Below, piece by piece: positions 42,010 to 43,195 of a stretch of 64,000 nt of DNA. The stretch is from positions 1 through 64,000 of the IMG/VR virus record IMGVR_UViG_3300033463_000001. One strand, written 5' to 3'. The stretch comes from a virus. Taxonomy: Duplodnaviria; Heunggongvirae; Uroviricota; Caudoviricetes. The translations under genes and the position numbers were made by a program. The notes under the pieces are model-generated. The model was not told where the DNA came from. It worked only from the letters and a program-made list of their open reading frames with translations, and ran no database searches. Position 1 is the first letter of the stretch; each line of letters starts with the position of its first letter.

Positions 42010-43195
42010 ACAAAGACTTCTTGACTACCGTGCACGTAGAGTCTTTGCACCTTGCCTATGGTCTACTATGTCCTGACCTACACAAGTCGGTAAAGTACAA
42101 TCCAAACCCGACCACAGCCAGACTGGCGCTATCATCTGAAACCACAACCTCAAGAAAGTTGGGAAAACGGCTCCAGAAGCTCTTGGTGAAGTGTCTAATA
42201 CGCGATAAGTGCTGTACTTTACGGCAATAACACGCACGAGTAAAAATAACACTACACCTCAAACATATCCGGCCATATAGGAGACCGGTACCCTCCGCAT
42301 CGGGTGTTAAGTCGCTGCGGCTCCTAGATTATCTCGACTAGGCTCTAGGCTGCCATGTCTCATCCGGGTCGGTACGAATTGTGAAGCCCCAGTGGGTGTT
42401 GACAGAGCATGCTATCGAGATAGATGCTGACGAGTCGTCACCCGGATGAAATAGGATTGACTGATTGAGTTCAGTCAGTCTATAAGAACCGATGTATGCG
42501 GCCTCTCGCTGCTTTGCGGAAAGGAGGTGGTGCACAAGCCAGACGGAGACGGCGGCCACACCGGTGTTAAATACAAACTATCGTACTGCGTCTTACGGAC
42601 TGGTGAAACTGAAGATTTCATTCAGATATGCCCTCGCGCAATGGCTATATGCTTCGTCGCCTGCGTCCGGGTTTGTCACTGGTCGACATGAAGAAACGAA
42701 TCTCAACATGCCCCATTGGATAATGGTTTACACCGCGTGCGGTTCTACTCACCTGTTGCGTTATTCTCACCCTGTTTTATTCTGCAAATTAGTATCACTA
42801 TATCTACAGGATTGCTCTACGTCCATCAGGAAGCTCCATTGAGCGCCTACCGGGAAACCGGTTAGATGGGGTTACGGAGAGGCAAGGTTCAGCCCCGTGC
42901 GGGTTCTGCCCGCCAGCGGGTTCTACCCGCGAATGATACACTGAACGTGATAGTCTGTAAAGGAGTGTGGGGCGGCGCGGCTTTCGATAGCGAAGCCAGT
43001 GTGCGTAACTATTGAAACAAAGCGCCGCCACCACGGAACCGACTGGTGGGAAAATGATTGATTGGTAAGTATGGGCACGCGCCCGAATGGCACGTGGGAA
43101 AGTGTGGAGCCCGGAGCATGGTGCCGCGATAGAATAGCAGCGAGGCGCCCCTTAGGTCTCCTGGAAATCCAGTCGGTTGGAAATTAGTCTAAGGT
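42010..43195. ncRNA. Candidate large structured RNA(s), about 1.2 kb
   Basis: GC-richer, no credible ORF, many 7-10 bp helices. Confidence 0.6.

Follow-up and report, generated by a model that had tools for sequence, protein, structure and literature searches.

To our knowledge, very few non-coding RNAs longer than 600 nt are known from bacteria and phages. The recently solved GOLLD, ROOL, and OLE RNAs are unprecedented RNA-only assemblies. GOLLD and ROOL are encoded close to phage tRNAs, can reach high abundance, and assemble into cages made of RNA alone (PMC12286853). In bacteria, boxA precedes 23S rRNA; there it brings in the Nus antitermination complex and possibly assists folding (PMC10250234). 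Here, we studied a gene-free gap of about 1,200 nt (42004-43200, minus strand) in the tRNA array of a rumen phage, working from the first 64 kb (64,000 nt) of its record; this stretch is called the window, and its numbering is used throughout.

A preliminary description, made from the letters of the window alone, had proposed one or more large structured RNAs of no known family at this place, and the proposal holds: the stretch folds beyond shuffled sequences, matches no family, tolerates frame-breaking indels, and is present in rumen RNA libraries. It is probably an RNA gene. We lean towards reading it as a single large (0.85-1.2 kb) structured non-coding RNA that belongs to a minus-strand tRNA polycistron. 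On sequence evidence, the element is a candidate large structured RNA outside the catalogued families, probably read from the minus strand, in one phage lineage; the weight of this finding is limited because the family is known from that lineage only and the fold is unproven.

Compared with GOLLD (RF02032), the element is alike in exceeding 800 nt within a phage tRNA array, in pairing a variable 5' part with a conserved 3' part, and in its predicted pseudoknots (PMC12286853), but it is not A-rich, and it has tRNA-Ala before it and tRNA-Thr after it. Its minus strand is not A/G-rich, unlike the GOLLD RNAs of related phages. The likeness to ROOL (RF03087) lies in the rumen habitat, the phage genome, the proximity of tRNAs, several pseudoknots, and weak sequence conservation (PMC5737381); however, ROOL averages 581 nt and the element, with about 1,200 nt between boxA and tRNA-Thr, is about twice as long, so that only a sub-domain of it could have the length of a ROOL. 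Finally, tRNA-Ala(UGC), boxA, and a long structured RNA with a potential end-to-end helix recall the spacer of a bacterial rRNA operon, except that the element has no similarity to rRNA.

Layout of the unit within the tRNA array

The source is a cattle-rumen jumbo phage whose record (327,393 nt, 93% complete) is present in bovine-gut sequencing runs. Its major capsid protein is T4-like, with at most 41% identity to named phages and 66% to other records in IMG/VR. The rumen habitat, together with promoter-like motifs of the form TAnnTTTG, suggests a Bacteroidales host. An array of about 19 tRNAs runs along the minus strand from 36956 to 43291, and the element sits in it between tRNA-Ala(UGC) (43221-43291) and tRNA-Thr(UGU) (41929-42003), both on the minus strand. 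The gap belongs to the genome's longest region without an ATG ORF of 120 codons (41627-43813), and its G+C content is 51% vs 42% for the genome, or 9 points higher.

Read on the minus strand, the order is promoter motifs, leader, tRNA-Ala(UGC), boxA, 1.2-kb RNA, hairpin with U-run, and tRNA-Thr. The first promoter-like motif, CTATATTA (43675-43682), is enriched upstream of the genome's ORFs and within 33-52 kb occurs on the minus strand only. The second, TATTTATA (43641-43648, minus), is a copy of TATTTAT, a motif found upstream of the genome's ORFs 38 times in sense vs 7 times in antisense orientation (P=2e-6) and, in 35-50 kb, on the minus strand in all four copies. Both motifs may act as phage promoters. 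The ORF-free leader of about 350 nt (43292-43640, minus) folds weakly, belongs to no family, and differs by 0.3-0.9% among near relatives. The tRNA-Ala that follows, the 5' punctuation mark, is an irregular allele (Rfam, 32.8 bits), and the boxA-like 11-mer GTTCTTTGAAA (43201-43211, minus), one of three genome copies that are all on the minus strand, abuts the 5' side of the RNA and would bind NusB.

The candidate RNA itself (42004-43200, covered by RNA-library contigs at 41966-43187) falls into a more variable 5' domain with a pseudoknot (42900-43200), a conserved core (42049-42888), and a 3' hairpin (42004-42047), all on the minus strand. The 8-bp stem of this hairpin (42047-40/42018-11) is invariant in relatives and is followed by a U-run, and tRNA-Thr, the 3' punctuation mark, abuts the RNA's 3' end. 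Separately, two very unlike tRNA-Ala(UGC) alleles segregate at the head of the unit among otherwise 97%-identical phages: the acceptor stem of the window's copy is irregular, and a regular, different allele (57.5 bits) stands at the equivalent place in L249 and L252.

Predicted structure, variation, and strand

The seven helices and three short hairpins of the preliminary description are all present in the sequence at the positions it gave, and the stretch folds better than chance, as its account of highly paired sequence implied. Across the full 1,200 nt, z is -4.9 on the minus strand and -2.4 on the plus strand, and none of 41 shuffles folded as well on either strand; the 3' 892 nt (the core) alone reach -2.4 and -0.7, respectively. 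The excess lies in long stems. Perfect 10-bp stems number 3 vs 0.4 expected, a count reached in none of 150 dinucleotide shuffles, and each of the three closes just 70-122 nt; local stems of at least 8 bp number 6 vs 1.5 in dinucleotide shuffles (P=0.007), and the total of 6-8 bp stems shows no excess over them. Local z-scores are patchy, with strong values in 42300-42500 and in 42900-43200 but no signal in 42500-42800.

Single-sequence folds are unreliable at a length of about 1.2 kb, and in such folds, both minimum-energy and centroid, a 9-bp helix (42888-80/42057-49) closes the core, which contains the 10-bp stems 42449-40/42369-60 and 42222-13/42099-90. Complements of 8-10 bp connect both the core and the 3' end with the 5' domain, and a potential end-to-end helix (43200-191/42053-44) has 10 bp, with one G.U on the minus strand. 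Many of the long helices are mutually exclusive.

The 5' domain opens with helix 43194-89/43155-50 (within 43150-43194), which encloses a hairpin at 43181-43168; these helices are invariant in relatives, and the 6-nt loop of the hairpin is complementary to 43043-43038. The preliminary description had 43037-46/43169-78 crossing 43150-55/43189-94 as a terminal pseudoknot. The crossing is geometrically real. A compensatory change from U-A to C-G at 43181/43168, seen in six relatives as one event, supports the small hairpin, which takes up bases of the 10-bp helix; pairing of the 6-nt loop is therefore the likelier form of the pseudoknot. The twin GCGGG hairpins of the same description are also present, but as the product of a polymorphic 16-nt tandem duplication (42916-42931) that is missing in three of five aligned relatives (L252, L253, and L256).

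The element is carried by nine contigs at 96-99% identity, and no others were found. Because these nine near-identical relatives yield a single compensatory pair, the fold of the element remains predicted and unproven; predicted pairs are disrupted by variants at close to the random rate (12 vs 13.6 expected), with no signal on either strand. In three relatives, the element diverges by 1.8-2.0%, compared with 8-11% for four-fold sites in genes nearby, which is suggestive of constraint. However, silent divergence is low in the adjacent lipoprotein gene too (1-2 of 77), and shared ancestry may account for some of the element's conservation. The 5' 300 nt are about four times as variable as the remainder, divergence stepping up near 42900 from about 1% to 4-5%. 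Relatives show indels of 1 and 16 nt, so that breaks of reading frame are tolerated.

Six RNA runs, chosen for containing the stretch, were available for comparison. In run X16, the depth of a contig at 41966-42924 is 274, whereas the leader has 8, the genes upstream 18, and the next gene downstream 73. This places the element at 15-30 times most flanks in contig means that are without strand and are a poor measure of expression, and contigs of this run leave the 5' 250 nt uncovered. Depth in X17 is 13-26 vs 2-12, it is flat across the stretch in X12, and a DNA run (X4) is flat at 5-9. We take this as a hint that the RNA accumulates in the rumen. RNA contigs end at 43187 and 43171, a weak hint of the RNA's 5' end, and they break near 42925-42965 in three runs.

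These contig breaks bear on the main rival, in which the stretch would be two to five smaller stem-closed cassettes, transcribed together from the minus strand and then cut apart (e.g., a 300-nt 5' RNA plus an 850-nt core, or units of 100-250 nt). Such a division would also account for the divergence step at about 42900, the patchy local z-scores, and the short spans closed by the 10-bp stems, and the neighbouring 288-nt element is a cassette of this kind. However, the breaks fall near the polymorphic duplication, which can itself split contigs, and searches inside the stretch turned up neither a tRNA nor a T-loop as punctuation. Folding is also stronger for the whole stretch (z -4.9) than for the core by itself (-2.4), and the 8-10-bp complements tie the 5' domain to both the core and the 3' end. 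We therefore regard separate cassettes as unlikely and retain the single large RNA.

On strand, the preliminary description is probably wrong. It stated that wobble pairs favour the plus strand, but stem-edge G.U pairs number 23 on plus vs 16 on minus (P=0.14, not significant), and this count scarcely separates the strands even for E. coli 23S rRNA. Its plus-strand GNRA loop, GAAA, reads GAAG in five of nine relatives. Variants in helices common to both strands' folds split 4:4 among the nine. Promoter motifs, boxA, flanking tRNAs, the 3' hairpin with its U-run, and folding z all indicate the minus strand, whose fold is 5 kcal/mol more stable than that of plus although the shuffles would have it 11.5 kcal/mol less stable. 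With context and folding pointing to minus and both plus-strand arguments failing their tests, an RNA antisense to the tRNA operon, as had been suggested, is unsupported. We consider it likely that the RNA is read from the minus strand, and a functional plus strand correspondingly unlikely.

Quite improbable, more specifically, is a functional plus-strand RNA antisense to the operon. Its best arguments are a plus-strand z of -2.4, a long nested rod (42500-42770/43045-43145) in which pair probabilities reach 1.0, purine-rich GAAA-type linkers, and the 23:16 edge wobbles. Against these stand the core's z of -0.7 and the loss of the GNRA loop in relatives, the weak wobble excess, the minus-strand position of boxA, the tRNAs, and the U-tail, and the finding of no plus-strand phage promoter motif in 35-50 kb.

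Coding potential and searches for known families

The preliminary description called the stretch ORF-free. This is too strong, as a 116-codon plus-strand ORF (42492-42842) and several ORFs of 68-76 codons are present, but none has a Pfam match. Among 1.8 billion representatives, the 116-codon ORF has no credible homologue, its matches being near-identical copies and summed weak matches to repeat proteins. The element encodes no recognisable protein.

Rfam models, including those for group I and II introns, GOLLD, ROOL, and OLE, find nothing inside 42004-43220 at E<=10. The earlier statement that RNase P, tmRNA, and group II signatures are absent was borne out in Rfam and ARAGORN (no match at E<=10), and Rfam models of SRP RNA and small ribozymes likewise do not match the element. 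The GOLLD, ROOL, group I, and LSU models match nowhere in the genome. For the group I intron (RF00028; no match at E<=10), control genomes were positive, and both flanking tRNAs are whole; the set searched with the ROOL model contained no genome with a known ROOL as positive control. LSU and SSU models are silent in the element, and the best BLAST match to E. coli 16S/23S rRNA has E=1, in a search that detects the neighbouring 23S mimic at E=5e-4. A hammerhead-like plus-strand CUGAnGA...GAAA (42427-42451) was rejected by eye for want of stem I. Helix 42485-42501/42733-42746 resembles the two arms of the group II domain V consensus, but 230 nt separate one arm from the other, neither the AC bulge nor domain VI is present, and no reverse transcriptase is adjacent.

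Distant homologues were sought widely. None was found by blastn in phage and plasmid collections, by BLAST in 64 related phage records, by nhmmer over 2.6 Mb of loci, or by three covariance models (5', middle, and 3') over 48-62 records and up to 30 tRNA-array loci, 42490-43015 being covered by BLAST and nhmmer only. Pattern scans of viral contigs and genomes gave nothing or chance matches, and loci that contain the neighbouring 154-aa gene family are without the element. No Ro60/TROVE partner was found in the genome, and a literature search found no paper describing the element.

This lack of distant homologues, together with variants that do not avoid predicted pairs, is what a transcribed spacer or a decayed element with chance structure might give. 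However, the folding z of -4.9, the long-stem excess, the raised G+C, the low divergence, and the high RNA depth in one run weigh against it, as the ORFs without family or homologue do against a small protein gene, and we hold this pair of readings to be very improbable.

GOLLD required closer comparison. Its Rfam model, with no match in this genome at E<=10, is positive in 11 of 48 related records, at 62-104 bits. The clade of GOLLD-like RNAs in gut and rumen jumbo phages (L282-L292; L213, 16231-16649) scores 59-104 bits, always under the Rfam cut-off of 150. A profile of the 11 clade cores (nhmmer) has no match in 42004-43203 on either strand. The 11-mer GTTCTTTGAAA precedes GOLLD in four relatives (L295, L298, L300, and L303), in which boxA to GOLLD end spans 790-1,650 nt. 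Given GOLLD behind boxA there and no profile match here, the locus appears to be a GOLLD-type slot without GOLLD. Least probable of all is a GOLLD diverged past recognition: context, boxA, and length resemble those of the relatives and the genome is otherwise without GOLLD, but the Rfam model that scores the relatives and the clade profile both find nothing in the element. We also considered whether the element lies in the relatives' 750-nt gap between GOLLD and tRNA-Ala, and ruled this out, as the gap holds a 108-codon ORF. In L290 and L291, the GOLLD core bears a tRNA-Ser-like insert.

Possible function and neighbouring elements

For the single minus-strand RNA that we favour, a transcript may start at the putative phage promoters at 43682/43648. 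The boxA would recruit host Nus factors, as it does ahead of 23S rRNA, and these would carry polymerase through the long untranslated RNA and help it fold. Processing at both flanking tRNAs, a step established for tRNAs generally, would then release the RNA, which could accumulate as a stable species. Our guess at its function, by analogy with GOLLD and ROOL, is an abundant RNA-only scaffold or oligomer that would aid phage takeover of host translation; on that analogy, a stable scaffold is our preferred guess. A mimic of the uL11-binding site of 23S rRNA is encoded in this array as well. We rate such a GOLLD-like scaffold role as somewhat less likely than not. More tentative, and on balance doubtful, is the full version of this idea: a multiply pseudoknotted 1.2-kb RNA of a new class, beyond ROOL and typical GOLLD size, in an rRNA-style tRNA-Ala/boxA unit that replaces GOLLD in this lineage, folding into a ribozyme or RNA-only particle and acting on host translation together with the array tRNAs and the 23S mimic. 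A sequence-unrelated 1.2-kb RNA in the boxA/tRNA slot would show that different folds can fill it, and the layout suggests that these phages may transcribe big RNAs via the host rRNA antitermination machinery. Such an RNA would also be a direct target for cryo-EM.

Several other features of the array and genome deserve mention. The 23S mimic (40728-41015, minus) is a free-standing 288-nt RNA whose ends copy the uL11-binding site of 23S rRNA, matching E. coli 1059-1088 (BLAST, E=5e-4) and the strand that follows it, on either side of a 210-nt insert; L212, L213, L222, L225, L229, L259, L219, and L220 have homologues in which the insert differs. Related phages carry another rRNA-like piece (L212, 9743-9828; L213, 9718-9803), scoring 53-58 bits, above the cut-off, at LSU model positions 2128-2213, presumably the L1-stalk region; the LSU model search finds no such piece in the window phage's genome. 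An ORF-free spacer (41745-41925, minus) folds above chance (z -2 to -3.4), and a second boxA-like site (41758-41748), ahead of tRNA-Met, ends it. An un-called element at 40262-40350 (minus) has a homologue in L229 (7163-7248, E=4e-10) and a tRNA-like look with an extended arm. The array also includes a tRNA-Leu with anticodon AAG (40071-40145), which is rare in bacteria, alongside five other Leu tRNAs.

Among protein genes, a 154-aa lipoprotein-like family (41162-41626) is without Pfam match and adjoins tRNAs in several phages. The window further encodes a CCA-adding/poly(A) polymerase family gene (3857-5338) and a weakly SAM-lyase-like gene (44744-45133). Outside the window, two reverse transcriptases (G000, 224155-224829 and 232262-232942, numbered on the whole record) lie in the tail-fibre region, 180 kb from the element. 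Beside both are paired TR/VR-like repeats of 119-130 nt with 86-94% identity, and the two loci are likely diversity-generating retroelements.
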